Translations under genes and position numbers: made by a program
The notes under the pieces: generated by a model
The model's input: only the letters and a program-made list of their open reading frames with translations
What the model was told of the DNA's origin: nothing
Database searches by the model: none
From: an uncultured Cytophagia bacterium
GTDB taxonomy: Bacteria; Zhuqueibacterota; Zhuqueibacteria; Residuimicrobiales; Oceaniaggregativiventaceae
Direction: 5' to 3'
DNA length: 12,549 nucleotides
Assembly (NCBI GenBank): GCA_964413725.1
Contig: CAYPUH010000004.1
Coordinates: forward strand, 27,347-39,895
In this document: positions 2 to 12,549 of the stretch, piece by piece
How the letters are laid out: each line of letters starts with the position of its first letter
How positions within the stretch are numbered: position 1 is the first letter of the stretch

Positions 2-676
2 TCCTATAAAAGTATTCAACAAGGTCGTCAGGGGTACTATCTCTCGGCTATCAAACTCGGCGCCCAGGCCATCGACAAGATGAAGATCGTCGCCAAAAGT
101 CACCCTGACTTTTGTGATCCCCATGTTGCCATCGGCACGTTTCTTTATTGGAAAAGCCGACTGGTTCGACTATTTTCCTGGCTGCCTTTTGTTTCAGATC
201 AACGCAAAGGGGGCATTGAACAGATCCGGGACTCGATACCGTGTTCTATTGTTTCCAGGTGGGCGGGATTATCGAATCTATCGTGGATATATATCCACGA
301 AAAAAACTATAATATGGCCATTTCCACAGCTCTGGACGGACTTGAAACATTCCCGGAAAGTCGCTTTTTTTTATGGCCCCTTGCAGAAGCTCAATTCCGC
401 AAAGGCAATTATCAGAGAGCCCGGACTTCATTTCATAGAATCCTGATGTCTCTGGCCACCGAATCGCCGAACAATCACTATAATGAAATTGTTTTGTATT
501 GGAAGCTGGCCCAGTGCCATCATCATCTGGGAGATGAAGATAAAACGCGCATGGCACTTTACAACCTGGTCGCACTGAAACCCGCCCCCGCCGTCAGGAA
601 ACGGGCACAGGAAAAACAGGAAAAAGCCCAAAAGTGGCTGGATGAACTCGAAGACAAACTGTATTATGGGGAATGA
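2..676 (+). CDS. TPR-like helical-repeat protein, C-terminal part (5' end lies upstream of the window)
   Basis: The reading frame is open from base 2: SYKSIQQGRQGYYLSAIKLGAQAIDK precedes the first ATG at 80. Stop is TGA at 674-676. The sequence is helix-rich with TPR-like spacing (FLWPLAEAQFRKGNYQRARTSFHRIL; VLYWKLAQCHHHLGDEDKTRMALYNLVAL). It ends in a charged tail (KRAQEKQEKAQKWLDELEDKL). The family call is by eye only. Confidence 0.55.
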   Translation, partial: SYKSIQQGRQGYYLSAIKLGAQAIDKMKIVAKSHPDFCDPHVAIGTFLYWKSRLVRLFSWLPFVSDQRKGGIEQIRDSIPCSIVSRWAGLSNLSWIYIHEKNYNMAISTALDGLETFPESRFFLWPLAEAQFRKGNYQRARTSFHRILMSLATESPNNHYNEIVLYWKLAQCHHHLGDEDKTRMALYNLVALKPAPAVRKRAQEKQEKAQKWLDELEDKLYYGE

Positions 677-1143
677 TGTCTCGCCCCCAATCGTCTGAAA
701 CAAAACAGCGTCACCTCTGTTACTGCGATCACCAAAATCCAGACATGGATATACTCCAGAGGTGTTTCGGGCCAGAACCAACCAAGTTCCGGCGAGGACC
801 AGGAAAATGGGAAAAACCAGAAATAAGAAGTTCCAATATGTCGCTGCATGGCATCGAGGGCAAAGTGCAGGGCGGATCCCAACAACAGGGCTGTTCGAAT
901 CTGATGCCGCAAACGTTGCTGGAACGCCTCTGCAATCAAAAAACATGCAACAATGACGAAAAGCGGGGTATGAGTCGCGACCGTCGCCGTGGTCAATGAG
1001 GGAAATACGATATACACCGGTCTGGACAACAGGTCCGGAAGCAGGGAACCCAGATAAAAGACAACACGAATATGGGGAGGCTTGACAAAGCGCACAAAAG
1101 CCCATGCTGCTGCGGTATGTGTGACCAGATCCGGCATTCTCAT
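664..1143 (-). CDS. YdjM/DUF457-family membrane-bound metal-dependent hydrolase (putative)
   Basis: 159-aa ORF with ATG at 1143-1141. Polytopic hydrophobic protein carrying the spaced His/Asp motifs I associate with the YdjM family: N-terminal MPDLVTHT, LLPDL, ATHTPL, and GSALHFALDAM. Its ATG overlaps the stop of the upstream gene (ATGA at 1143-1140). The competing 247-aa ORF 428..1171 in another frame looks non-protein-like. Confidence 0.65.
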   Translation of the reverse strand: MRMPDLVTHTAAAWAFVRFVKPPHIRVVFYLGSLLPDLLSRPVYIVFPSLTTATVATHTPLFVIVACFLIAEAFQQRLRHQIRTALLLGSALHFALDAMQRHIGTSYFWFFPFSWSSPELGWFWPETPLEYIHVWILVIAVTEVTLFCFRRLGARHHSP

Positions 1144-1577
1144 CGCCTTTCAATTTGCCGGTTTGATCCATTCCATTTGTAATGCAATACCAGGAGCCCC
1201 CCTACACCGATCACCGGAATCAGAGAAAACCAGATCTTTTCGCGTCGGTTGTGTAGAATACGATATTTCTTCAATTCGATCCACCCCTCTTGATGGAAAA
1301 TACCGCGAACGGTTATATACTCGCCCGGTGTTAAGGGAGGAGTGTTTCCCTGCACCGGGATCAAATCATTCAGGTATTGGATAACGAACCCGGTATCTGA
1401 AAGAGCATGGACAATGGACCCGGCACCGACCTGAACCGTCCGGCCATCATACTGGCTCGGGGCCTCGAGACAATCGTTCAGTGTGGTAAAGGGAAACATG
1501 ACATATCCATAAGCAAGGAGAATCGATTCCAGAAGCAACAGCATCAGGATTCGAAAAAATCGATTTTGAAAAACCAT
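1140..1577 (-). CDS. Hypothetical bitopic membrane protein (N- and C-terminal TM helices flanking a ~85-aa beta-rich domain)
   Basis: 145-aa ORF with ATG at 1577-1575, 11 nt after the IMPase stop. Hydrophobic helix 1 is FFRILMLLLLESILLAYGYVMF and helix 2 is IWFSLIPVIGVGGLLVLHY. The middle segment (DGRTVQVGAGSIVHALSDTGFVIQYLNDLIPVQGNTPPLTPGEYITVRGIFHQEGWIE) looks like a small beta/OB-type domain. I recognise no family. Confidence 0.6.
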   Translation of the reverse strand: MVFQNRFFRILMLLLLESILLAYGYVMFPFTTLNDCLEAPSQYDGRTVQVGAGSIVHALSDTGFVIQYLNDLIPVQGNTPPLTPGEYITVRGIFHQEGWIELKKYRILHNRREKIWFSLIPVIGVGGLLVLHYKWNGSNRQIERR

Positions 1578-1588
1578 ATCAGACGACC

Positions 1589-2362
1589 CTAAAAATGTCT
1601 GGTCACAGTCTGCAACAACAGCGACAACAGATTTGAATTCGCGGCAACAACGTCCCCTGTCCAGATAGCCTGATTGGTTCCGGAAAAATCACGGACCAGG
1701 CCTCCCGCCTCTTGGATGATCAGGGCCCCGGCGGCCACATCCCACGGTGCCAATCCGACCTCCCAAAACCCGTCAGCACGGCCACAAGCGACCTGACACA
1801 AGTCCAGGGCCGCAGACCCCAACCGACGAATCCCGCTAACCTGGTGAAACAAATCAGAAAACGTCTTTTGATAATTTTCCAACAGACATTTGGACCGGAA
1901 GGGAAATCCCGTTACCAGCAAGGCCTGTGCAGGATCGGAGACATCGCTCACCCCGATCGGATGCCCGTTCAATGTGGCTCCCTTGTCTTTTTCCCCCACA
2001 TAGAGATCATCACGACTGGGATCAAACACCACTCCCAAAACCATTTCCCCTTCATATTCCACGCCGATAGAGACTGAAAAAACCGGATACCCGTGGATAA
2101 AATTGGTTGTGCCATCGAGCGGATCAATAATCCACCGATAGCCTCCCGGCTCCTGCTTAACCGATTCTTCAGCGTAAATCCGATGCGAGGGGAACGATGA
2201 ACGAACCACCTCGATGATCTTTTCTTCAGACGCCTTGTCGGCATGTGTCACAAAGTCGAATGTTTGTTTATGCGTCACCTGTTCGTGTTCAATGGTCCCG
2301 ACAGTATCCATCAAAATCGAACCCGCTTCCCGCGCAGCCGTGACCGCCACCTCTTTGATCAT
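1589..2362 (-). CDS. suhB: Inositol monophosphatase family protein (SuhB/IMPase-like)
   Basis: 257 aa. IMPase signatures WIIDPLDGTTNFIHGYP and the C-terminal AALDLCQVACGRADGFWE block are present. ATG at 2362-2360 overlaps the mutS2 stop (ATGA). Confidence 0.9.
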   Translation of the reverse strand: MIKEVAVTAAREAGSILMDTVGTIEHEQVTHKQTFDFVTHADKASEEKIIEVVRSSFPSHRIYAEESVKQEPGGYRWIIDPLDGTTNFIHGYPVFSVSIGVEYEGEMVLGVVFDPSRDDLYVGEKDKGATLNGHPIGVSDVSDPAQALLVTGFPFRSKCLLENYQKTFSDLFHQVSGIRRLGSAALDLCQVACGRADGFWEVGLAPWDVAAGALIIQEAGGLVRDFSGTNQAIWTGDVVAANSNLLSLLLQTVTRHF

Positions 2363-4755
2363 GTTTCAGTACTCCTATTTTGTTTGGTACGGGAAAACTC
2401 TACGACCGTCACACCTGTCCCCCCTTCATTCCAGTTCCCCAATCGCGTGTTCTGAACCCGGGGATGATTCTCAAGAAACTCGCCGACATATTGGCGAAGG
2501 GTACCGGTTCCCTTGCCATGAATAATACGTACCTGCTGGAATCCTGCCAGAAGAGCATCATCGATAAACTTGTCCACCCTCTCGGTGGCCTCGTCCACCG
2601 TCATTCCCCTCAGATCGATCTCATTGCGATAATCCCCCGAGCGTTCCAGGTCAACTTTAACAAATCGTTTCCGTTTTGGGGCGGGTGAAACACCTGTATG
2701 GCTTAATTCCTTTACCGGAACCTTGAATTTTGCGGTGGGGGTCTGAAGCATCACACGTCCCTGTTTGTCGACACCAGAGACCACGGTTCCATCGTAACCA
2801 AAGGGCATCCAGCGGACCCGATCACCACGATTGACAGGCCGGTCGGATTTTTCTTCCTCCGCCTCCTGAAAAGAGTTCTGCAACGATTCAATTTGCTTTC
2901 GGGCGGCATCCATCTCGGATTTGGCGTTCCGAATGCTCTCTTTGGAGGCTCCCTGTTCTTTAAGCTCTCGAACGGTTCGTTCTATTGTGGCATTGGCATC
3001 TTTAAGGATTTGTTCCGCTTCGGCAGCCGCCTGCTTTTTGAGTTTCTTTTCATGCGTTTTCAACTCTTCGGATCGTTCGCCATATAGCTTGGTCAATCCA
3101 CGCAACTCACTCTCCTTGATAGAGGCCTCTCTGGTGAGTTTTTTATAGTGGATCAGTTTGTCTTCCAGCTCCAACAACAGTCGCTCAAAACGATCCTTGT
3201 GGGACCCTACAATCGTACGGGCCTGCTCGATTATATGATCGTCCAGGCCGAGTCGGTGGGCAATTTCAAACGCATAACTCGAACCCGGGATACCCTCACG
3301 CAGATGATACGTGGGTTCCAGCGTTTCAACATCAAATTCCATAGAGGCATTATCGATATCAGGATGATCAAACGCAAAGGCTTTCAGACTACCCTGATGT
3401 GTGGTGACAACGCTGAGACAGGAACGACGCGTCAGGGTATCCAATACCGACATCGCCAGAGCGGCACCCTCATCAGGATCGGTGCCGGATCCGATCTCAT
3501 CGATCAGTGCCAAGCTCTTGCCATCAGCCCGATCGGTGATATCTTGAAGCCTCGAAAGGTGCGAAGAAAAAGTCGAGAGATCGTTTTCAATGGATTGTTG
3601 GTCACCGATGGCTGCAAACACGGCATCCAGATGCCCCACCCTCGAGTGAGGCAAAGCGGGAATATGCATGCCACTCCGGGCCATTAAAACCAAAAGTCCG
3701 ATGGTTTTCAGGGCTACGGTCTTTCCGCCCGCGTTGGGTCCGCTGATAATCAAACATTTTTTCTCCTCGCCCAGAGAGACATCCAACGGGACGACCTTTT
3801 TCTCTCCCAATCGCAACAGCAACAGAGGGTGACGACCCTGAAACAATGAAATTTCCGGTGTGCTAGAGAGTTCAGGGCTGTGAGCATTCAGGCGCTTTGA
3901 AAAGAGTGCCTTGGCATAGACCAGCTCAAACTGTTTTAACAGATCCACATTGTTACGCAATCCGTCCAAATCGGTTCTGGCGCGGTCGGACAAATCCGCC
4001 AGTATTCTCTGAACCTCCTGCGACTCTTCGGCATAGAGTTCACGAATTCGATTGTTGTCTTCGACCGTTTCAAGCGGTTCAATAAAATAGCTTGAGCCAC
4101 TGGCAGACCGATCGTGGACCAATCCTTTAATTTTTCGCTTATATTCCTCCTTGACCACCAACACCAGACGCCCGTCGCGCACAGATATGATATTTTCCTG
4201 CAACATACCCTGAGTTCCAAGGCGAGTGAGCATGGATTCGATACGACGACGGGCTTTGTGTTCAGCATCGCTTATCTGTTTCCGAATCGAGGCCAGCTTG
4301 GGTGTGGCAGAATCCCTGACATCACCGCTATCGCAATCGATACAGCGGTTGATTTCTTTTTCAAGTGAAGAGAGGACGATCCAGCCTAACGTGATTCGTT
4401 TGAGTTGAGGTATCTTTTCCTTTCGGCTGGAAAAATAAGATAAAAGTCTGCGGATCCCGACCATGGTATGATACAAAGGCAACCAATCCTGAGCAGGAAG
4501 CACACTGTTGCTGACGGCGAGTCGTTTGAGCAATGGCCGGATATCATAGAGACCATCAACGGAAAACGGTTGATCAAACTCGATCAAATCACGGAGCTCT
4601 GTGGTTTGATCCAGAGCCGTACGGATCTGGTCATCCTCGCCCAAAGGCTCCAGTACACTGGCAGCCTCGTGTCCCATGGGTGAGATAGCATAGTCACCAA
4701 GAACCTGCAGGATCTTGTCAAATTCGAGCGTCGTAAATGTTGATTCCACAAGCAA
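2359..4755 (-). CDS. mutS2: Endonuclease MutS2 (MutS-family ATPase with C-terminal Smr domain)
   Basis: 798 aa. It has Walker A GPNAGGKT, the MutS motif LIDEIGSGTDPDEGAAL, and a long coiled-coil (KKLTREASIKESEL...QEAEEEKSD). The C-terminal Smr domain is IDLRGMTVDEATERVDKFIDDALLAGFQQVRIIHGKGTGTLRQ. The start codon at 4755-4753 is TTG, immediately after an in-frame TGA. GTG at 4749 is the only nearby alternative. Confidence 0.95.
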   Translation of the reverse strand: MLVESTFTTLEFDKILQVLGDYAISPMGHEAASVLEPLGEDDQIRTALDQTTELRDLIEFDQPFSVDGLYDIRPLLKRLAVSNSVLPAQDWLPLYHTMVGIRRLLSYFSSRKEKIPQLKRITLGWIVLSSLEKEINRCIDCDSGDVRDSATPKLASIRKQISDAEHKARRRIESMLTRLGTQGMLQENIISVRDGRLVLVVKEEYKRKIKGLVHDRSASGSSYFIEPLETVEDNNRIRELYAEESQEVQRILADLSDRARTDLDGLRNNVDLLKQFELVYAKALFSKRLNAHSPELSSTPEISLFQGRHPLLLLRLGEKKVVPLDVSLGEEKKCLIISGPNAGGKTVALKTIGLLVLMARSGMHIPALPHSRVGHLDAVFAAIGDQQSIENDLSTFSSHLSRLQDITDRADGKSLALIDEIGSGTDPDEGAALAMSVLDTLTRRSCLSVVTTHQGSLKAFAFDHPDIDNASMEFDVETLEPTYHLREGIPGSSYAFEIAHRLGLDDHIIEQARTIVGSHKDRFERLLLELEDKLIHYKKLTREASIKESELRGLTKLYGERSEELKTHEKKLKKQAAAEAEQILKDANATIERTVRELKEQGASKESIRNAKSEMDAARKQIESLQNSFQEAEEEKSDRPVNRGDRVRWMPFGYDGTVVSGVDKQGRVMLQTPTAKFKVPVKELSHTGVSPAPKRKRFVKVDLERSGDYRNEIDLRGMTVDEATERVDKFIDDALLAGFQQVRIIHGKGTGTLRQYVGEFLENHPRVQNTRLGNWNEGGTGVTVVEFSRTKQNRSTET

Positions 4756-4796
4756 TCACAAAGGTTAAGAGTTGTTGGACAGAAATTTCCCGGGGT

Positions 4797-5393
4797 TTAA
4801 GTGCTGGAAGGGGGGGAGGACTCGGATTCTTCCAGTTTCTCTAGCGACTGATCGAGGGGTTCTTTGATTTCAGGTACCATCCTGATAACCCAGTCCACCA
4901 TGACCTGAGCGAATTTAGTCATATGTCCGAACAATACCGAATGATGTTCCAAAGCCTTGATGTTCTCATTCAAAGGCAGTACATAAATCGAAAGGGTAAT
5001 AATACTGATAAAAAACGCACCTTTTATAAAACCAAAAAGCGCACCGACCAGTTTATTGAGCGAATTTTGCAGATCCTGCCCGAACATACGCTGAAACAAT
5101 TGACTAAAGACCTGAAAGAGAACTCGCACACCGATCAAAACCGCGGCAGCGCCAAGAATGGAGGCCAAAGTGGGAGGCAAAGACGTTACTCGGGCCAGTA
5201 CGAGACGAGCGATCAAGCTTCCGAATTTGATGGCCATCAGAATGGCAACAATCCATCCGGTCAATCCCAATAATTCCTCAATCATTCCCCGTTTGGCACC
5301 GATGAACACAAACAACACGAGTGCCGCGAGAATCAGCAAATCAACAGGATTCATGATATTCCGATTATCCTTTCCGGACACCCCATGAATCAT
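4797..5393 (-). CDS. cvpA: CvpA (colicin V production) family membrane protein
   Basis: Four hydrophobic helices with the CvpA-like N-terminus NPVDLLILAALVLFVFIGAKRGMIEELLGLTGWIVAILMA. The start is ambiguous. ATG 5393 has GAGGG 3-4 nt upstream. The internal ATG 5354 (MNPVDLL...) would give the short pre-TM N-terminus typical of the family. Confidence 0.85.
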   Translation of the reverse strand: MIHGVSGKDNRNIMNPVDLLILAALVLFVFIGAKRGMIEELLGLTGWIVAILMAIKFGSLIARLVLARVTSLPPTLASILGAAAVLIGVRVLFQVFSQLFQRMFGQDLQNSLNKLVGALFGFIKGAFFISIITLSIYVLPLNENIKALEHHSVLFGHMTKFAQVMVDWVIRMVPEIKEPLDQSLEKLEESESSPPSST

Positions 5394-5470
5394 AGTCCCT
5401 CAATGTACTTTGGCACAGATTCGGTAGCGGGTGCCCACGGCAAACGTCAAAAACATACCTGGTGTAAATG

Positions 5471-5510
5471 AAAAAAGTGAACGGGTTGGTGACATCACCT
5501 TCCCATCCAC
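5471..5510 (-). terminator. Rho-independent terminator downstream of yqeY
   Basis: Minus-strand sequence: GTGGATGGG-AA-GGTG-ATGT-CACC-AA-CCCGTTCAC-TTTTTT. The outer stem is 9 bp (2 G.U pairs), followed by a 2x2 internal loop and a 4-bp inner stem with a tetraloop. A T6 run follows (TTTTTTCATTT). The hairpin begins 29 nt after the yqeY stop. Confidence 0.6.
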
Positions 5511-5539
5511 TTTAAACAGTAGTCGATTGGTGTAAAGAT

Positions 5540-5983
5540 TCAACTCAACTTTTTCTTTACCAACTCACTGATCGTTTTGCCATCAGCCCTGCCCTTGGCC
5601 TTTTTAATCACAACAGGCATCACCTTTCCCATATCTTTCATCGTCAGGGCGTCCAACTCATCGATGGCGTCTTCTACCATCTTTTCCAGTTCGTCACTGG
5701 AAAGTGGTTGGGGAAGATAGGTCAGTATAACGTTCAGTTCCTTCTGTTCCTTTTCGGCGAGGTCTGTACGTCCTGCTGACTCGTATGCTTGTATGGATTC
5801 ACGGCGTTTTTTGGCAGCACTGTTCAGGATGGCCATCTCCTCATCTTCAGAGAGATCCTCCTGCTTGTCGATGGCTGCATTTTTCATCATGCCGCGCAAA
5901 AGGCGGATAGCGGAAAGACGGTCCTTTTCACCTGCTTTAAGGGCCGTTTTCATATCTTCAGTGAGTTTGTCAAAAATTGTCAT
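5540..5983 (-). CDS. yqeY: GatB/YqeY domain-containing protein
   Basis: 147 aa. Characteristic YqeY N-terminus (LTEDMKTALKAGEKDRLSAIRLLRGMMKNAAIDK) and C-terminal block (MKDMGKVMPVVIKKAKGRADGKTISELVKKKL). It lies directly downstream of rpsU, a widely conserved pairing. Confidence 0.9.
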   Translation of the reverse strand: MTIFDKLTEDMKTALKAGEKDRLSAIRLLRGMMKNAAIDKQEDLSEDEEMAILNSAAKKRRESIQAYESAGRTDLAEKEQKELNVILTYLPQPLSSDELEKMVEDAIDELDALTMKDMGKVMPVVIKKAKGRADGKTISELVKKKLS

Positions 5984-6014
5984 GGCGTTCTCTATTGGCT
6001 ACACTCGATCGCAT

Positions 6015-6212
6015 CTAGCGATTCTCCATCGCCTGCAATTTACGCATTTTGCGTCGTGCCGCTGCCAACTTGCGTTTACGTTTTTCACTGGGTTTTTCAA
6101 AATGTTGATGTTTCTTGATATCGGACATCAACCCAGCTTTTTCACAGGACTTCATGAACCGTTTCAAAGCCTTTTCAAAGGGTTCATTTTCCCGTACACG
6201 AACTCCAGGCAT
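6015..6212 (-). CDS. rpsU: 30S ribosomal protein S21
   Basis: 65 aa, very basic. The N-terminus is canonical for S21: [28 protein letters not shown]...[16 protein letters not shown]. Confidence 0.95.
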
Positions 6213-6222
6213 TAAAGAATCA

Positions 6223-6230
6223 ACCTCCTT
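6223..6230 (-). promoter_or_regulatory. Shine-Dalgarno site of rpsU
   Basis: The minus strand reads GGAAGGAGGTTGATTCTTTAATG. AAGGAGGT lies 10 nt upstream of the rpsU ATG. Confidence 0.65.
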
Positions 6231-6262
6231 CCAGTGTTAAGGGTTATGTAATTTCAAACTCT

Positions 6263-6291
6263 AATCTAAATAAATTTTTCTTCAAATGCAA
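6263..6291 (-). promoter_or_regulatory. Candidate sigma70-type promoter for rpsU-yqeY
   Basis: The minus strand has TTGCAT (6291-6286), a 17-nt A/T-rich spacer, then TAGATT (6268-6263). It sits in the 101-nt HIT-rpsU gap, about 45-50 nt upstream of the rpsU ATG. This is a hexamer match by eye only. Confidence 0.35.
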
Positions 6292-6313
6292 GGAATTTCC
6301 AGAGTTGTGATCA

Positions 6314-6655
6314 TTAACCCGGAGGCCACTGCATAAACCGTCCTCCCAAAAGATGAAGATGGACATGAAAGACGGTCTGTCCGCCCTGTGCGTTGCAATT
6401 GGCAACAATACGGTACCCATCATCGGCGATACCCCGCTCTCGGGCAATGTCTTTAGCCGTCAATATCAACTCTCCCATCAGACCCGCCTGGTCCGGTGTC
6501 AGCTCGTTCAACGATTCGATATGATTTCGGGGAATCACCAGAATATGTGTCGGAGCCTGTGGATTCACATCTTCAAAAGCCAAAACCGTGTCGTTTTCAT
6601 AAACAATTTTGGAAGGGATCTCTCCATTCGCAATCTGACAAAATAGACACGCCAT
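6314..6655 (-). CDS. HIT (histidine triad) family nucleotide hydrolase
   Basis: 113 aa. N-terminal CLFCQIANGEIP and the histidine triad GGQTVFHVHLHLLGG are present. A good SD (GAGGAGG) lies 4 nt upstream of the ATG. Confidence 0.9.
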   Translation of the reverse strand: MACLFCQIANGEIPSKIVYENDTVLAFEDVNPQAPTHILVIPRNHIESLNELTPDQAGLMGELILTAKDIARERGIADDGYRIVANCNAQGGQTVFHVHLHLLGGRFMQWPPG

Positions 6656-6694: not shown

Positions 6695-7429
6695 TTAGCT
6701 CAAATCGCCGACGGCGGACAAAAGTTTAACGGCACCAACCAATCCGGCCGTATCACTGCGCAATCGTCTATCCCCCATTCGCAATAGGTTAGAACCTTGT
6801 TCAATAGCGAGCGTCACTTCTTGCTCACTGAATCCACCCTCGGGTCCCACAATCAGCACTGCACGGGATTGATGTTCCAAAAGGGTGATGAGGCTATCGG
6901 GACGGGCTCCCAGATCATGGTCATGCGCGATAAACAACTCACCCTCCTGGGGTGTTGTGACAAAATTGTCAAAGGATTGGGGTTCGGCGATTTCCGGACA
7001 TCGCGACCGCGTACTTTGTTTCATCGCTGCGAGCGCTTTTTTTTCCCAGCGTCCCCGTCGTCCACGGGCCACCACAGATCGCTGCGTTATCAATGGTACA
7101 AATCGAGAAATTCCAATCTCTGTCCCCTTTTCAACGACCCAGTCAAATCCATTGCCCTTTAACATCGCTTGAGCCAATGTAAGATGCAGCCCCGGCTCAT
7201 GAACCATAAAGGACTCTCGCTCGATCGCCACCGTTACACACATTTCATCGATCTTCAGGATCGGCCCTTCATAAAGCCCTCCCTGCCCATCCACAGCATG
7301 GAGCCAGTCTCCCACTCTCTTTCGCATGACGCGATGAATATGCTTTGCCTCATCTCCTTTAATCCAAAACCGATCGGAGCTCAGATGGTCGGGCTCGATA
7401 TAGTACTGTTCCCAGTGTCCTGTAATCAA
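6695..7429 (-). CDS. rsmE: 16S rRNA (uracil1498-N3)-methyltransferase RsmE
   Basis: RsmE-like N-terminus (YYIEPDHL...IKGDEAKHIHRVMRKRVGD) and the C-terminal SPOUT block LIVGPEGGFSEQEV...LGDRRLRSDTA. The 342-aa track ORF (to 7723) has no plausible ATG near the conserved N-terminus. I call TTG at 7429-7427, with GGAG 7 nt upstream (7440-7437). This gives 244 aa, and TTGA overlaps the stop of the upstream barrel gene. Confidence 0.85.
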   Translation of the reverse strand: MITGHWEQYYIEPDHLSSDRFWIKGDEAKHIHRVMRKRVGDWLHAVDGQGGLYEGPILKIDEMCVTVAIERESFMVHEPGLHLTLAQAMLKGNGFDWVVEKGTEIGISRFVPLITQRSVVARGRRGRWEKKALAAMKQSTRSRCPEIAEPQSFDNFVTTPQEGELFIAHDHDLGARPDSLITLLEHQSRAVLIVGPEGGFSEQEVTLAIEQGSNLLRMGDRRLRSDTAGLVGAVKLLSAVGDLS

Positions 7430-8751
7430 AACATAACTCCCAAATCGAAAATCCACTCCGACCGTCCCTCCATGGAACGACCATATTCTATACGAATGAC
7501 ATGTATATACGGAACGCGAAGATGTAATCCCACACCATACCCCGATTTCAGAGCCCCCGGATAGGCTCCCTCCATCCAAACTGCACCCGTGTCGATATAA
7601 AATCCCATACCCAGACCAAATGGCAAATTGGTCAAATAGCGTCCGAATCCCGCTGTTGTGGTGGCCAGACTCGCATACTGGATGGGAACAATCGGTATTC
7701 TGAGCTCGAGACTGGAGAGCCATCGATGGTTTCCGGCATCGCGGTAGTCAAAGTGCCCACGGATCCGTTCATTATAGCCCAGGTAATACCGGGCGTATGC
7801 AGGGCTATCCCCCAATACCCGGCTATAGGCACTTCGCATGGCCAGTGTTGACTGCCCGGGTAAGGGTAAATAGACACGAGCATCCTGTCCAATCCGAAGA
7901 GAATGAAACGCGTCCGGCCAGTACAGTGTCTTTGCGTTGAGCTTGAGATATACTCCTTTACGGGGATAGAAAATGAAATCCCGATTGTCATAGCGAATGG
8001 AAACGCCGGCAACAGATTGCCGATCATTCCCCGTACCTGTCCAGCTGATCGGGTTAAATCGTTCCGGGAAAGAGATCTGTTTAACACCCATCTCAAGCTG
8101 CCCAAACGTATGAAACCCCCATCGTTTTCCCACTGTCAATTCAATGCCAGTGTGCTGTTCATCAAACGTTTCCACGGTATTGACCCGGCTCTCGACACTG
8201 GTATAATAGGTCCGGCCACTGAAATAGAATTTTTGCTGACCCCCAAACCATGGATTATGATAATACAAATAAAGGCCTGGATTGTATCCCAACCAGCCGG
8301 AGAACTGAACCTTTTCAGCACGACCGCGGACGTTCAAATGAGCTAGACCCGCACCATAGGAAAGTTTTTTAACATCCCGCTCATTGTAAAACAATATTGG
8401 ATAGGGCATCCAGTACCAACGTTCCGACACGATGACCAGCAGGGCCACCCCCTCTCCTGTGGAAATCGGTTGGATATCGACCCGGTTGAATAGATCGAGA
8501 CTCTGTAATCGCTTTCGGTCACGCTCGACGTAGAGAGGGACATACCGGTCTCCCGTTTTCAGCTTCATCTCCCGAAGGATCACATCCCGATCCGTTTTCT
8601 CATTTCCCACGATGACAACCCGCTCAATCCTCACCGGACTTTTCTCGTCCTGGGGATCGGATCTCGCTTTCGAAACCGGTATCATAACGGCAGAGAGCAA
8701 CAAAAACACTGCAAAATAGCATAAAGTCACTTTATGAACCACAACTCTCAC
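7426..8751 (-). CDS. Omp85/BamA-superfamily outer-membrane beta-barrel with a single POTRA domain
   Basis: 441 aa with a GTG start at 8751. Signal peptide: RVVVHKVTLCYFAVFLLLSAVMIPVSKA. There is one POTRA-like unit (VRIERVVIVGNEKTDRDVILREMKLKTGDRYVPLYVERDRKRLQSLDLFNRVDIQPI). Barrel motifs are YDNRDFIFYPRKG, the loop-6-type LGYNERIRGHF and GFYIDTGAVW. The C-terminus is the beta-signal FDLGVMF. It is too short for a canonical 5-POTRA BamA. Confidence 0.85.
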   Translation of the reverse strand: MRVVVHKVTLCYFAVFLLLSAVMIPVSKARSDPQDEKSPVRIERVVIVGNEKTDRDVILREMKLKTGDRYVPLYVERDRKRLQSLDLFNRVDIQPISTGEGVALLVIVSERWYWMPYPILFYNERDVKKLSYGAGLAHLNVRGRAEKVQFSGWLGYNPGLYLYYHNPWFGGQQKFYFSGRTYYTSVESRVNTVETFDEQHTGIELTVGKRWGFHTFGQLEMGVKQISFPERFNPISWTGTGNDRQSVAGVSIRYDNRDFIFYPRKGVYLKLNAKTLYWPDAFHSLRIGQDARVYLPLPGQSTLAMRSAYSRVLGDSPAYARYYLGYNERIRGHFDYRDAGNHRWLSSLELRIPIVPIQYASLATTTAGFGRYLTNLPFGLGMGFYIDTGAVWMEGAYPGALKSGYGVGLHLRVPYIHVIRIEYGRSMEGRSEWIFDLGVMF

Positions 8752-8773
8752 GTCTATAGAACTCGTTTAAAGG

Positions 8774-9958
8774 TTAGAACATATCGAGCAATCGCATGGT
8801 AACACGCCAATCTCCATCACCACTGACCAGTTGGCGGCTGGTATCGATACGGACCAGGCCATCAAACAGCCTCAGGGAAACACCTGCGTCAGCATGACCA
8901 CGGAATTTGGACATCCCTTCGAGAAAATCCGTCGGTTTGTCTGGATTGTACCAGGCATCACCAAAATCAAAAAAGAGTCCAAGCGAGGTCGCATCCATCA
9001 GAGGAAACGGCAAAAGGCCCAGGTGGCGTATAATATGACCTCCGAACAGGTAGTTCAGTGAAACGAAAAACAGACTGCGTCCACGACGCAAGTATTCCGG
9101 AAATGCACGCAGGTTCGACAATCCGCCTAACGCCAGCAGATGTTGTGGCCCCATGCGGCCGGCGCGCAATCCAATCTTGCTCTGAATCACGATTTTATGG
9201 GAAATTACCGTTGGAATATGGATATCGCTGTGTACAAAAAGCCCGGTGGTTTCAAAATCACCATACAGTCTTTCCAGAGCGACACGAAACAGCCAGCCCC
9301 GGTTCGGAAAGAATGGATTGTCACGGCAGTCAAACTCAAGCCCCATGCGAAAACACATCTCGGTTCCCTCTTCTATAGGGGGATTGGGGCGAAACCGTTT
9401 GCCATGTCCAAGCAGTGTGGGCGCAAACTGGCTGCTCATAGCCATACTTTCATAGCGCCTCCGGCCTCCATGTATATAAAAGTTGAGTCGATTCGACCAC
9501 CGATGCTGTAACAGACATTTCCACCCCTGCCGACCATAGTGATTCAGAAAATCTTCTTTCAGGAAAATACACGCCAGTGAATTCTCAAATCCACCTACAC
9601 TCCATTTTTCGGAACTGTGTGTTTCTCTATAAACGGCCACCCGCACAACAAGGGGGCGCTTTTTAAAAAAATCCTTTTGGATTCCGGCCTCATATCCCCA
9701 TCGTTCGTTGTTGTGGCCGTATCCGAGCTCACCGATCAGCCCGAGGTTGGATTCTGACAGAACATTGATAAAAGTCCCGACACGGGGATAAGCACCTTCC
9801 ACACGATTATAGCGGAGCTGAAACCAGGTATCAATCCGCTGATAAGACGATATGGGATCATCATCGATTTCTTCCACTCGAAACTGAGCACCTGCCGGAA
9901 TGTTCGAAAGAATCACCAGACTTGTCAATGCAACCCATATGAGTTGAAAAGGTTTCAT
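8774..9958 (-). CDS. Omp85-superfamily outer-membrane beta-barrel lacking POTRA domains
   Basis: Preferred start is ATG 9958, with GGAG 6 nt upstream, 14 nt after the phosphatase stop. This yields the signal peptide MKPFQLIWVALTSLVILSNIPAGAQF. The track start at 9985 would overlap the upstream gene. Barrel motifs are paralogous to the neighbouring gene: FDCRDNPFFPNRGW, LGGLSNLRAFPEY and GLFFDFGDAWY. The C-terminus is RLLDMF. Only about 20 residues separate the signal peptide from the first strand-like segments. Confidence 0.75.
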   Translation of the reverse strand: MKPFQLIWVALTSLVILSNIPAGAQFRVEEIDDDPISSYQRIDTWFQLRYNRVEGAYPRVGTFINVLSESNLGLIGELGYGHNNERWGYEAGIQKDFFKKRPLVVRVAVYRETHSSEKWSVGGFENSLACIFLKEDFLNHYGRQGWKCLLQHRWSNRLNFYIHGGRRRYESMAMSSQFAPTLLGHGKRFRPNPPIEEGTEMCFRMGLEFDCRDNPFFPNRGWLFRVALERLYGDFETTGLFVHSDIHIPTVISHKIVIQSKIGLRAGRMGPQHLLALGGLSNLRAFPEYLRRGRSLFFVSLNYLFGGHIIRHLGLLPFPLMDATSLGLFFDFGDAWYNPDKPTDFLEGMSKFRGHADAGVSLRLFDGLVRIDTSRQLVSGDGDWRVTMRLLDMF

Positions 9959-9972
9959 AGTACGCTCCGGTC

Positions 9973-12201
9973 CTAACTCACACACAATACCACCAGCGTC
10001 AAATCATCGGAGGGATCATGGTAACCGCTGAATTGACTGACATCTTTGACAATATCGACACAAAACGTCTCAGCTGTCAACTCACGATCCTGCTCCAGTA
10101 CATGTAGCAATCTGTGCTCACCGTATTCTTCACCTTCCAAATTGATGGCCTCGGTTACACCGTCTGTGTACAAAATCAGGGTATCCCCACGGCTCAGCTG
10201 AAGCCGATGTTGCCGGTATTCGATATCCTCGTCTACGCCGATAACAGGAGCGCCATTTGTCAAGGGAACGCACCGGCCATCAGCATGCTTGAGCAAGGGA
10301 TAATTGTGCCCGGCGTTGCAAAAAATCAATTCCCGGTTCTGTGGGTTAAAGATGCCATACCAAAATGTGGCGTACTTTTCCGGTGCGGTGGTCCGCGAGA
10401 GGTGTCGATTCACCCGATTGATAACCACTTTCGGGTTCGTTTCATTCAAAGCAGCCGCACGAAAGGAGGCCTGCAGATTCGACATCAATAGAGAGGCCGG
10501 AACACCTTTTCCCGAAATATCACCAATGGCGAATCCGATCGATTCATTCGGCAGCAGTATAAAATCATAAAAGTCCCCACCAACCTGCCTCGAAGGGCGA
10601 TTTCGAGCAGCCAGTGAAAAGGTCGGCCCGGAGGGCACATGCTGGGGCAATAGCATGCGCTGAATGTCCCGGGCAACATCAAGTTCCTCGTTAAGTTTTT
10701 GCTGAGCCCGCACACTATGATACAAATATCCATTTTCTAGAGCGATGGAAGCATGTGTTGCTATCATATCAAGTAACGCCCGCGCTTCTGAGCTCAACGG
10801 CCGGCGGTCTCCGGGACGACCAATAGCCAAAAGCCCTCTAAAGGCGGAACGACCGCGCAGCGGAAGAAGAAGAAAAGCGTTCAGTTTTTCAAACAAATCG
10901 ATCTCACGTGGCTGATTCAGCTGAATACGTATATGTTCTGCCCGAACCGGCCGATCCAGGTTCTGAACCAGTGTCAGGATCTCGCTATACCGGCTCACCT
11001 CCCAACCCGGCCGATACGGATCCCGGCCTAAACGGTCGGACAATCCTCCTCGTTCATCCACGGTCAACAGCGTTGCGGTGGAAATATCAAGGTGCTCCTG
11101 CAACAACTCTCTCAGCGTCAGTAACAACTCGCGTGGATCGATAATCATCCACAATTGTTGACTCACCTCTCGTACAATATCAAAATATCCTTTCCGCAAC
11201 GGACGGATGAATGTATTGACCCAGTGTTCTATCCGGTTCAAAAACGGTTGAAACAAAAACACTGCCAACAATAAAAATCCCATCTGGAACAGAGGCAATT
11301 CAAATTTCAGGGCCCGAGGAGCAAATCGTTCCAGGTACATGTGTAGGATCAGATAGAGGCCTACGACACCAATGGAAGCAATAAAAAAGACCAACCCACG
11401 ACGAAAGACCACCCGCAAACTCAAAAATTGATGGCGGATGATGGCATAGCAAACGGAAATGGTTCCGGCTAAAATCGCCACGATGGTGACAGCATATCCC
11501 CATTTCAACCCCGCAAGAGAAGTGGAGAAGGACAACTGGGCATGGGCGATCGCATACACTACGATACTGATGGCCAGACTGATGCGAACAAGTTGCACAC
11601 GCCGTCGAATCAGACTCTCCTTACCCCCATTATAGGGACGAAACAAGACGACAATCGCTGACAGTGCATAGAGAAGATTGATCCCTTCAAAAAGTTGGCT
11701 GTGAATGGATACAAAACCTTCCAAACCGTACAAGATACCCCGGGCCAACACAAACAACGGATTCAGCAAGGGCCCCCAAAAAGAATCAAGACTCCATTGC
11801 TCCCCACTCAACTGGACAAAAAATGATTTGGGGAACAGCAAAACGGCAATCAGGCGAAAGATATAGGGGACGAAAAGCCATCGAAGTAGTGAGGGGTGAT
11901 GCTTAATAACCGCATGTTCACGGGGAAACAGAAAAGCAAATGCCAACAAAAAAGGAAAAAAGAGATGCCAAACCACCGTGAGCCGTCCCGCCATCGAATT
12001 GGCCCAGGATATGGGATCGGTCATCCCCAAATAAGGACGAAACGCCGCTGCCAGTGTGCCCAATGCAGCACACAAAAGCAACATTCCAGTGACCTGGTAC
12101 AGTCGGTTACGTGTGTTTTCCCGAAAAACGATCAGGCTGAGAAAAAAAAGTACGGCACCCGTAAGTACATAAACTGAAGAGGCCACCCGGAAAAATAGCA
12201 T
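9973..12201 (-). CDS. Membrane-anchored sensor protein phosphatase: ~10-TM N-terminal module, GAF-like domain, PP2C/SpoIIE (RsbU-type) domain
   Basis: PP2C/SpoIIE motifs VGGDFYDF, AIGDISGKG, LILYTDGVTEA and SDDLTLVVL lie at about 9976-10683. A GAF-like region lies at about 10726-11178. The hydrophobic N-terminal half (about 11236-12198) ends in a FQPFLNRIEHWVNTFIRP linker typical of multi-TM sensors. Preferred start is ATG 12201, 1 nt after the kinase stop (TGAaATG). The track start at 12270 would overlap the kinase gene by 68 nt. Confidence 0.9.
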   Translation of the reverse strand: MLFFRVASSVYVLTGAVLFFLSLIVFRENTRNRLYQVTGMLLLCAALGTLAAAFRPYLGMTDPISWANSMAGRLTVVWHLFFPFLLAFAFLFPREHAVIKHHPSLLRWLFVPYIFRLIAVLLFPKSFFVQLSGEQWSLDSFWGPLLNPLFVLARGILYGLEGFVSIHSQLFEGINLLYALSAIVVLFRPYNGGKESLIRRRVQLVRISLAISIVVYAIAHAQLSFSTSLAGLKWGYAVTIVAILAGTISVCYAIIRHQFLSLRVVFRRGLVFFIASIGVVGLYLILHMYLERFAPRALKFELPLFQMGFLLLAVFLFQPFLNRIEHWVNTFIRPLRKGYFDIVREVSQQLWMIIDPRELLLTLRELLQEHLDISTATLLTVDERGGLSDRLGRDPYRPGWEVSRYSEILTLVQNLDRPVRAEHIRIQLNQPREIDLFEKLNAFLLLPLRGRSAFRGLLAIGRPGDRRPLSSEARALLDMIATHASIALENGYLYHSVRAQQKLNEELDVARDIQRMLLPQHVPSGPTFSLAARNRPSRQVGGDFYDFILLPNESIGFAIGDISGKGVPASLLMSNLQASFRAAALNETNPKVVINRVNRHLSRTTAPEKYATFWYGIFNPQNRELIFCNAGHNYPLLKHADGRCVPLTNGAPVIGVDEDIEYRQHRLQLSRGDTLILYTDGVTEAINLEGEEYGEHRLLHVLEQDRELTAETFCVDIVKDVSQFSGYHDPSDDLTLVVLCVS

Positions 12202-12202
12202 T

Positions 12203-12549
12203 TCACTGGGATTTATGATGCTTGACAAGAACGACCTCGGTTCCGTTTGAATGGAAATGAAACTGGACATCGTCCATTAATGTCCGAACAATAAAAATAC
12301 CCCGTCCACTCTCCTTCATCAGGTTCTCGGGATCGAGAGGATTCTGAATGTCATTGAGCTCAAATCCCTCCCCCTCATCTATGACCCGTATGGTCAATGT
12401 TGTACCCGACACCTCAAAACAAACCGTTACACTCTTGTTCGGATCCTGTTTGTTGGCATGATAAATAGCGTTGGCGACGACTTCGGTCACGGCAATAGCC
12501 AGACTGTCCATCTCATCCTGAGTGAAGGATAGCTCTTTGGCATACTGTT
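12203..12549 (-). CDS. RsbW/SpoIIAB-type anti-sigma regulatory Ser/Thr kinase (HATPase domain), 5' end outside the window
   Basis: The frame stays open to the window edge (QYAKELSFTQDE precedes the ATG at 12511). It has the N-box AVTEVVANAIYHA, the G1 box VIDEGEGF and the G2 box ESGRGIFIV. The layout matches RsbW (compare YTYDEIEDLKIAVSEACTNAVQHA in B. subtilis RsbW, quoted from memory). Confidence 0.85.
   Translation of the reverse strand, partial: QYAKELSFTQDEMDSLAIAVTEVVANAIYHANKQDPNKSVTVCFEVSGTTLTIRVIDEGEGFELNDIQNPLDPENLMKESGRGIFIVRTLMDDVQFHFHSNGTEVVLVKHHKSQ

Follow-up and report, generated by a model that had tools for sequence, protein, structure and literature searches.

The 12,549-nucleotide (nt) stretch analysed here (the window; contig CAYPUH010000004.1 of assembly GCA_964413725.1, from an uncultured Cytophagia bacterium) carries on its minus strand the genes of an RsbW/SpoIIAB-like kinase and of a membrane phosphatase of the PP2C type, followed by those of two Omp85-superfamily barrels, barrel1 and barrel2, and by rsmE. 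The favoured reading, to which a probability of roughly 0.6 is given, is that the kinase and phosphatase genes form the end of an operon that is conserved in candidate division KSB1 and its relatives and that lineage-specific synteny has placed upstream of a separate and self-sufficient barrel1-barrel2-rsmE unit. The two enzymes would form a partner-switching-type module whose STAS protein and target are encoded remotely. In KSB1 and its relatives, the complete operon would read (ftsB/DivIC)-DUF502-OMP622-kinase-phosphatase, in which OMP622 is a large predicted outer-membrane barrel and the phosphatase combines about ten predicted transmembrane segments with a GAF and a PP2C domain. Only the tail of this operon falls within the window.

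The comparison covers around 100 related loci (numbered with the prefix L), for which maps were made by tblastn and trees by neighbour joining without support values. A barrel2-anchored sample was taken from species-representative genomes (26 loci, mostly KSB1) and a kinase-anchored sample from metagenomes (the best 80 of 473 relatives, 65 after dereplication at 95%). OMP622 was found directly 5' of the kinase in 47 of the 49 kinase-anchored loci that reach far enough upstream, and in 57/60 when all sets are taken together, at an OMP622 identity of 25-50%. The distance from the OMP622 stop to the kinase start has a median of 20 nt and does not exceed 30 nt in 32 of these 47 loci. Further upstream, DUF502 precedes OMP622 in 29/32 loci, usually with ftsB/DivIC before it. 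Three loci depart from this order: in L108 the kinase follows DUF502 directly, in L104 it likewise stands without OMP622, and in L005 a STAS gene lies directly 5' of the kinase.

The OMP622-kinase pairing holds over five clades, whereas at least six changes of the downstream neighbour have taken place. The PP2C phosphatase follows the kinase in 11/49 loci. Elsewhere this position is taken by barrel1, barrel2, a thiamine pyrophosphate (TPP) riboswitch with thiC, rlmN, a 7TMR-DISM histidine kinase or a convergent gene. The riboswitch was located between kinase and thiC at L031:6387-6485 (73 bits) and L068:7173-7270 (69 bits). Where such a riboswitch or a convergent gene comes right after the kinase, it marks the kinase as the operon end. 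One of the convergent genes is a conserved reading frame of 84-90 amino acids (aa; MxxSDEEKQVIEKKIDKLKKRI...), which runs towards the kinase 3' end in one clade (minus strand; L042:8594-8866, L052:8646-8900 and L099:8631-8891); the L042 copy has no Pfam match. In L087:8366-12266, the kinase stop lies within the start of a 7TMR-DISM/PAS histidine kinase gene, with a putative response regulator behind it, and in L037:9151-11592 the kinase is followed by an Rce1-like-SpoIIE phosphatase. These two loci suggest an exchange, between clades, of the input element that accompanies this kinase.

The two KSB1 clades seen in the OMP622+kinase tree recur in the phosphatase tree, where L005 and L004 fall outside them. 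The kinase-phosphatase pair is therefore ancestral, with the phosphatase having been lost or moved repeatedly. From these sequence trees, the phosphatase is an ancestral, often-lost fourth member of the upstream operon that has been inherited vertically with the kinase. Full-length relatives are rare; a 32%-identical one stands alone after an ABC transporter in L004, and a 30%-identical one is found in L005 in the order STAS-kinase-phosphatase.

The sequence-only reading of the window had proposed a different connection, in which the two Omp85 proteins, in place of a sigma factor, would be the partners of the kinase and phosphatase, for sensing the envelope or controlling outer-membrane protein insertion or export. 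Most related loci do not keep this adjacency. An Omp85 barrel occurs within 4 kb downstream in 7 of 25 dereplicated kinase-anchored loci (those with at least 4 kb of downstream sequence), and the remaining 18 show no barrel1- or barrel2-like open reading frame (ORF) anywhere in their 8-kb flanks. Divergent barrels might have escaped tblastn, but profile hidden Markov models (HMMs) of both families were also empty there. In the OMP622+kinase tree, every locus with directly adjoining barrels falls into one clade, so that the arrangement is apparently of single origin; in L031, which belongs to another clade, barrel1 and barrel2 are met only past an intervening thiC.

The converse comparison agrees with this. 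Among the 21 barrel2-anchored loci with at least 6 kb of upstream sequence, the kinase is present in 11, and the other 10 carry barrel1-barrel2-rsmE or paralogue-barrel2-rsmE without it. In L029, L032 and L033, a divergently transcribed DUF4331 gene precedes the barrel1-barrel2-rsmE unit, which is there on its own. The phosphatase orthologues, in turn, were found beside genes unrelated to barrels, an arrangement named in advance as speaking against the proposed coupling. In the sister clade, rlmN comes after the phosphatase: the two genes overlap by 4 nt in L100 and L105, and a few nt separate them in L060, L061, L106 and L112; a NUDIX gene takes this place in L005 and a convergent gene for a copper-binding protein in L004. 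Moreover, the kinase is predicted to be cytoplasmic and the barrels reside in the outer membrane, and no periplasmic component that could connect them is encoded. A functional coupling to the Omp85 barrels is thus considered quite improbable, and their adjacency in the window, judged from gene order, is mostly lineage-specific. What did stand of the proposed link between an RsbW-like kinase and an outer-membrane protein, in a locus without adjacent STAS or sigma genes, is a genomic tie to OMP622, not to the Omp85 barrels.

The gene order within the window itself is as the sequence-only reading had listed it, as established from ORF coordinates and Pfam:

12203..12549, minus strand: kinase, the 3' 114 codons, with the 5' end cut by the window edge; stop TGA at 12205-12203; HATPase_c_2 at 1.5e-25.
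9973..12201, minus strand: membrane PP2C (PPM) phosphatase; start ATG at 12201, stop TAG at 9975-9973; SpoIIE and GAF domains.
8774..9958, minus strand: barrel1, a divergent barrel of the Omp85 superfamily; start ATG at 9958, stop TAA at 8776-8774; Omp85 at 28.6 bits.
7426..8751, minus strand: barrel2, a BamA-like barrel with a single POTRA domain; start GTG at 8751, stop TGA at 7428-7426; POTRA and Omp85 domains.
6695..7429, minus strand: rsmE, 16S rRNA methyltransferase; start TTG at 7429; Methyltrans_RNA at 1.8e-40 and PUA_4.
664..6655, minus strand: housekeeping array of HIT, rpsU (S21), yqeY, cvpA, mutS2, IMPase, a 145-aa protein and ydjM, from Pfam and ORF coordinates.

From kinase to rsmE, the junctions measure +1, +14, +22 and -4 nt. 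That of kinase and phosphatase reads TGAaATG, the 14 nt between phosphatase and barrel1 contain GGAG, and barrel2 and rsmE overlap in TTGA. The housekeeping array provides an internal control for this tightness as well as for the absence of sigma factors. Over all 12 complete minus-strand junctions of the window, the distances are 1, 14, 22, -4, 39, 101, 31, 146, 41, -4, 11 and -4 nt. An overlap of 4 nt occurs three times, between barrel2 and rsmE, between MutS2 and IMPase, and between the 145-aa protein and YdjM. Barrel2/rsmE and MutS2/IMPase are functionally unrelated pairs and yet overlap. Tight spacing is therefore a trait of this genome and not of the kinase-to-barrel stretch, which takes away an apparent support for the coupling to Omp85. 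The 145-aa ORF (window 1140-1577, minus strand), between IMPase and YdjM with junctions of 11 and -4 nt, has no Pfam match; a called gene for it is also present in L003. A gene for a TPR protein is convergent to the minus-strand array.

An intrinsic terminator scan gave no terminator-like hairpin at any junction of the kinase-rsmE stretch, in agreement with the sequence-only reading. In this region, sigma-70 promoter-like and intrinsic terminator-like sites were no more numerous than in shuffled sequence. A promoter-like site at 10080-10051 (minus strand), about 90 nt 5' of barrel1, was not taken as evidence because the scan was at chance level. No Rfam family was detected in the window or in the OMP622-kinase gap of the extension described below.

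The operon upstream of the window edge could be followed in two contigs. L114 is a contig of the same metagenome-assembled genome (GCA_054922275.1), 99.86% identical to window 12549-10483, and reaches 4.1 kb further upstream; L003 is a 48.5-kb Joint Genome Institute (JGI) contig with 88% DNA identity to the window. L114 contains, in this order, an enolase gene, around 450 nt, a DUF502 inner-membrane protein, the 612-aa OMP622, a gap of about 330 nt, the kinase and the phosphatase. L003 has the same order, with ftsB/DivIC filling the position of the ~450 nt. The barrel gene itself lies outside the window:

L114:1914-3752 (0.35-2.2 kb past the window end) and L003:2571-4439: OMP622, large predicted outer-membrane barrel of 612-622 aa.

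OMP622 has a signal peptide and ends on a C-terminal aromatic residue (...LKLRWTF in L114, ...RWVF in L003). Its AlphaFold model (pLDDT 88.9, pTM 0.78) is all-beta, with about 28 strands and no plug. If the strand count of this model holds, OMP622 would rank among the largest single-chain barrels. Foldseek returned generic large-barrel similarity only, at template modelling (TM) scores of 0.3-0.46 with MtrB as the best match at 0.46. No Pfam or NCBIfam family matched OMP622, and no NCBIfam family matched the upstream DUF502 protein. With these TM scores and no match to a sequence family, OMP622 was dropped as a candidate LptD, TonB-dependent or Omp85 homologue.

STAS and sigma genes were sought over the same sequence. 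That the window contains no sigma factor, as had been noted from the sequence alone, was confirmed with Pfam on the called genes, among which one 145-aa ORF is without any Pfam match. Sigma-factor matches were likewise lacking among the called genes of L003 and the scanned ORFs of L114. It had been suggested to look for a STAS gene and a sigma factor upstream of 12549. The sequence could indeed be extended by the 4.1 kb of L114, and neither gene was found there. No STAS gene occurs in the window, the L114 extension or L003, and no STAS or sigma gene within about 16 kb. For a wider view, two STAS HMMs, one built from two seeds of these loci and the other from these seeds together with the SpoIIAA and RsbV sequences of B. 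subtilis, were run against 7188 ORFs from 1.14 Mb of loci. Matches were obtained in L005 and L104 only, and none in KSB1 loci. L005 is a canonical STAS-kinase-phosphatase locus and in L104 a distance of 5.6 kb separates the STAS gene from the kinase; the phospho-acceptor Ser motif is retained in the STAS proteins of both loci. Small STAS ORFs might also have been hidden in the gaps of 220-430 nt that flank the kinase in L011-L014, but none are present there.

Several observations weigh against the favoured reading and have to be set beside it. Some of them speak for the Omp85 coupling. Within the barrel clade, the adjacency is kept throughout, over barrel2 identities of 37-47% and often with overlapping junctions: the kinase/barrel1 junction of L016 is -4 nt, the phosphatase/barrel2 junction of L028 is +4 nt, and L047 shows -1 nt. 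Where the phosphatase is present in this clade, it always lies between the kinase and the barrels. In addition, a barrel1-like Omp85 gene is found 2.4-3.5 kb downstream in two loci outside the pattern, L031 (past thiC) and L005, which is a weak hint in favour of the coupling. Others concern the operon itself. The gap between OMP622 and kinase is long in the window's lineage, namely 143 nt in L003 (4440-4581) and about 330 nt in L114 (3753-4105), so that the kinase may be transcribed with the downstream genes and not with OMP622. Finally, neither a STAS or STAS-like substrate nor a target was located in the window, the extension or the related KSB1 loci, and that both are encoded elsewhere in the genome is an assumption.

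The L005 locus (L005:954-10046), which is not from KSB1, is worth describing on its own. It contains, in order, STAS, kinase, a phosphatase with transmembrane, GAF and PP2C parts, NUDIX, a HAMP histidine kinase, a sigma54 response regulator, a 598-aa Omp85 protein and DUF4390. The 598-aa protein is barrel1-like (tblastn E 8e-12) and DUF5686-like. It represents a second, independent case of such a module near an Omp85 gene, at a distance of 3.5 kb.

As for the long gap, L114 and L003 share within it a conserved block, TTTTTAGGTATTGAATTTTTC..CCAAAATACGTAAATCTTAAAA, containing TTGAAT-N17-TAAATC, and the gap of L114 holds around 190 nt that are absent from L003. This block is a possible lineage-specific promoter, from which the genes of kinase, phosphatase and barrels would be transcribed.

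The conservation of the upstream block can also be read more strongly, with the kinase tied functionally to DUF502 and OMP622 and with the phosphatase and the Omp85 genes as secondary additions. The kinase would then be either a feedback anti-sigma factor/kinase within the operon of its own sigma factor or part of a new unit that monitors the status of the envelope. For the feedback form, the location of rsbW in the sigB operon serves as a model. The persistence of OMP622 some 20 nt in front of the kinase over five clades and down to 25% identity, the regular presence of DUF502 before it, and the TPP riboswitches and convergent genes that mark the kinase as operon end all argue for such a tie. 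All loci, however, come from one phylum-level group, and the conserved block also holds ftsB and often enolase, which means that unrelated genes can share this degree of conservation. For these two reasons, conservation alone is no proof of a functional link between OMP622 and the kinase. The tie is further weakened by L108, where the kinase does without OMP622, by L104 and L005, where it is found in STAS-containing neighbourhoods, by the 143-330-nt gap in the window's own lineage, and by the different compartments of OMP622 and kinase. A functional tie is thus a tentative but credible possibility. It overlaps with the favoured explanation of a conserved operon tail, and there is no contradiction between the two.

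At the other extreme, all adjacencies, including that of OMP622 and kinase, might be inherited order in a compact housekeeping array and have no functional meaning, the enzymes being ordinary members of a partner-switching network, comparable to the numerous Rsb-like genes scattered in other bacteria. The 17-kb array from enolase to IMPase is syntenic in the window, L003, L009, L012, L016 and L043, tight junctions and 4-nt overlaps connect unrelated genes, and literature searches turned up no link of the kind. Inherited order of this sort does not predict, however, that the downstream synteny is scrambled at a depth where OMP622-kinase is intact in 96% of the loci. It is accordingly held to be rather unlikely. 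The odds are also clearly against the most far-reaching proposal, an envelope-coupled partner switching of KSB1, in which (ftsB)-DUF502-28-strand barrel-kinase-phosphatase would act as one unit without STAS or sigma in cis. In this speculative form, the state or biogenesis of the giant barrel would be linked to cytoplasmic Ser phosphorylation, and the window clade would have recruited barrel1 and barrel2 as co-expressed clients or helpers.

The assignment of the two enzymes rests on domain and motif evidence. All domains expected from the sequence alone (HATPase_c_2, SpoIIE, GAF, Omp85 and POTRA) were matched in the profile search. The kinase frame is open from the window end to 12203, and the full-length protein comprises 135-143 aa in L114 and L003. 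A full-length orthologue matches HATPase_c_2 at 3.3e-28, with HATPase_c_2 scores of 90-99 bits against a cutoff of 27.4. When a profile of 12 orthologues was compared to the PDB, RsbW (6m36, 5e-22) and SpoIIAB (3e-15) were matched over residues 9-139, the full length. The ATP-binding residues are invariant in these 12 orthologues (N-box E51/N55/H59, G1 D86-x-G-x-G90 and G2 G110-R-G112), and the same N-box, G1 and G2 residues are carried by the window fragment. The NCBIfam equivalog cutoffs were nonetheless missed, with 79.7 versus 145 bits for RsbW and 61.8 versus 135 bits for SpoIIAB. By these scores, the kinase is a member of the RsbW/SpoIIAB superfamily but no equivalog. It is predicted to be a cytoplasmic RsbW/SpoIIAB-type serine kinase or anti-sigma-like protein.

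In the phosphatase, hydropathy indicates about 9-10 hydrophobic segments in residues 1-320, followed by a GAF domain at 378-511 (7.5e-06) and a SpoIIE-type catalytic domain at ~540-742 (PF07228, 5.5e-52, 176.9 bits). The metal-binding Asp motifs of the PPM family, GGDxxD, D(I/V)(S/A)GKG, TDG and DD, are conserved in 14/14 orthologues and read GGDFYD, GDISGKG, YTDGVTE and SDDLTL. The best solved relatives are SiaA (6k4e), RssB, Rv1364c and SpoIIE. Exact-protein look-ups with the 765-aa and 742-aa versions matched no record. Judged by their motifs, kinase and phosphatase are both catalytically intact family members.

Barrel1 has a signal peptide and no POTRA domain. Its Pfam scores are low, with Omp85 at 28.6 bits versus a cutoff of 24 and a weak match to DUF5686. 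Its family was aligned to the barrel domain of barrel2 by hhalign with a probability of 94.7% (E 6e-8) over barrel1 residues 95-374. This span leaves around 70 residues after the signal peptide, and therefore no room for a POTRA domain. No NCBIfam family matched, and the barrel1 alignment, used as a profile against PDB sequences, had no match at E<=1. The family is small, with 512 representatives at E<=1e-3 among 1.84 billion. By sequence, barrel1 is best described as a 'noNterm'-type Omp85 barrel.

Barrel2 ends on F and is matched by POTRA (2.3e-10, 41.4 bits) and Omp85 (3.5e-21, 76.5 bits). For its AlphaFold model (pLDDT 85.8), the best Foldseek matches in the PDB are BamA chains (E 5e-22, TMq 0.69). 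Against the BamA equivalog TIGR03303, it reaches 95.3 bits at a cutoff of 297 and contains one POTRA domain rather than five; it is therefore a paralogue and not the essential BamA. Apart from L031 and the truncated L029, every barrel2-anchored locus has rsmE after barrel2, often with an overlap. This pairing (window 6695-8751; L008-L033) reaches as far as a distant group in which an FG-GAP protein and an Omp85 paralogue with one POTRA domain precede barrel2.

If the favoured reading of a conserved operon tail with remote partners is correct, the kinase and phosphatase would be the two halves of a partner-switching-type switch. The membrane phosphatase would act as the sensor, with an input from the membrane and/or a GAF ligand, and would dephosphorylate a phosphorylated STAS or STAS-like protein encoded elsewhere. 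The kinase would re-phosphorylate this protein and, when free, sequester its target, which may be a sigma factor or another protein. This mechanism is modelled on how the RsbW/SpoIIAB and RsbU/SpoIIE families are known to behave (review PMC8256260). The Omp85 genes would probably be co-transcribed by read-through in the compact array and would not be obligate partners of the switch. Since the kinase keeps its place at or next to the end of the DUF502-OMP622 operon, the switch may be co-expressed with, or feed back on, an envelope function.

The pairing of kinase, phosphatase and Omp85 had been thought uncharacterised, and literature searches on partner switching and the outer membrane, on DUF502, and on KSB1 and anti-sigma factors gave no description of this arrangement. 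A true Omp85 link would provide partner-switching signalling with a new output; the comparison of loci speaks against one. The protein families involved are already known, and the Omp85 pairing is explained by inherited gene order. New, as judged from gene order and sequence families, would be a phylum-wide operon in which an RsbW-type kinase, ancestrally with a SpoIIE-like phosphatase, follows a giant outer-membrane barrel and no STAS or sigma gene is nearby; the same literature searches did not bring up such an operon. The link between OMP622 and kinase gives studies of non-canonical partner switching, and of what an uncharacterised giant barrel does, a definite starting point that can be tested. 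For an uncultured phylum this is a solid lead from comparative data, but not yet a mechanism, nor is it the pairing first proposed. More generally, in compact arrays of co-directional genes neither a tight or overlapping junction nor synteny within a clade says much about functional coupling, since barrel2/rsmE, MutS2/IMPase and the phosphatase/rlmN pair of the sister clade overlap as well.

Among known barrels, BamA shares with barrel2 the POTRA domain and a predicted Omp85 barrel of ~16 strands, and its chains are the best structural matches; the two differ in the number of POTRA domains (five versus one). A noNterm class of Omp85 proteins, in which the barrel is without a periplasmic N-terminal domain, has been described by Heinz and Lithgow (PMC4104836) and in Leptospira (PMC11358297). 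Barrel1 resembles this subfamily as a POTRA-less barrel, but is highly divergent, with a weak Pfam score and no PDB sequence match. For OMP622, an all-beta model with ~28 predicted strands, the very large barrels MtrB (26 strands), LptD (26) and SprA (36) are the closest comparison, with MtrB as the best match. TM scores are only 0.3-0.46, and OMP622 has no LptD-type N-terminal domain and no plug.

The coupling of an outer-membrane barrel to an anti-sigma factor, both genetic and functional, has a precedent (PMC11637429, PMC10927553). The anti-sigma factors of those systems span the membrane and bridge to the outer-membrane component, whereas the window kinase is of the soluble RsbW type. OMP622 also differs from their barrels in having no plug or signalling domain, and no extracytoplasmic function (ECF) sigma factor is encoded nearby.

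Partner switching that is dispersed or has a non-sigma output is represented by SiaABCD of Pseudomonas, BtrUVW of Bordetella (type III secretion), SypE-SypA of Vibrio fischeri (biofilm) and RsbU/RsbV1/RsbV2/RsbW of Chlamydia (PMC8256260). These systems illustrate that enzymes of the RsbW/RsbU type can work without an adjacent sigma factor, can control outputs related to the envelope, such as secretion and polysaccharide, and can be encoded by unlinked genes, as in Chlamydia (PMC8256260). They thereby provide a precedent for the STAS and sigma genes that are missing from the window locus. By the literature searches, none of the four is reported in an operon with a large outer-membrane barrel or beside Omp85 genes. 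In all of them a STAS or STAS-like substrate has been identified, whereas none was found at the window locus. SiaA (6k4e) is the closest solved relative of the phosphatase catalytic domain, at 1.5e-11.

The comparison with the B. subtilis modules RsbU-RsbV-RsbW-SigB and SpoIIE-SpoIIAA-SpoIIAB-SigF shows both differences and likenesses. Unlike in those modules, no STAS or sigma gene is present in the window or the 4.1 kb upstream, the kinase does not reach the equivalog cutoffs of RsbW and SpoIIAB, a GAF domain stands where SpoIIE has its central domain, and the module is located behind envelope genes instead of in a sigma operon. Alike are the single-domain, full-length kinase homologue with intact ATP motifs, the SpoIIE/RsbU-type PPM domain with all catalytic Asp motifs, and the adjacency and co-inheritance of the kinase and phosphatase genes. 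SpoIIE, with its polytopic N-terminus of ~10 transmembrane segments, its central regulatory region and its C-terminal PP2C domain, has the same overall layout as the phosphatase of the window.

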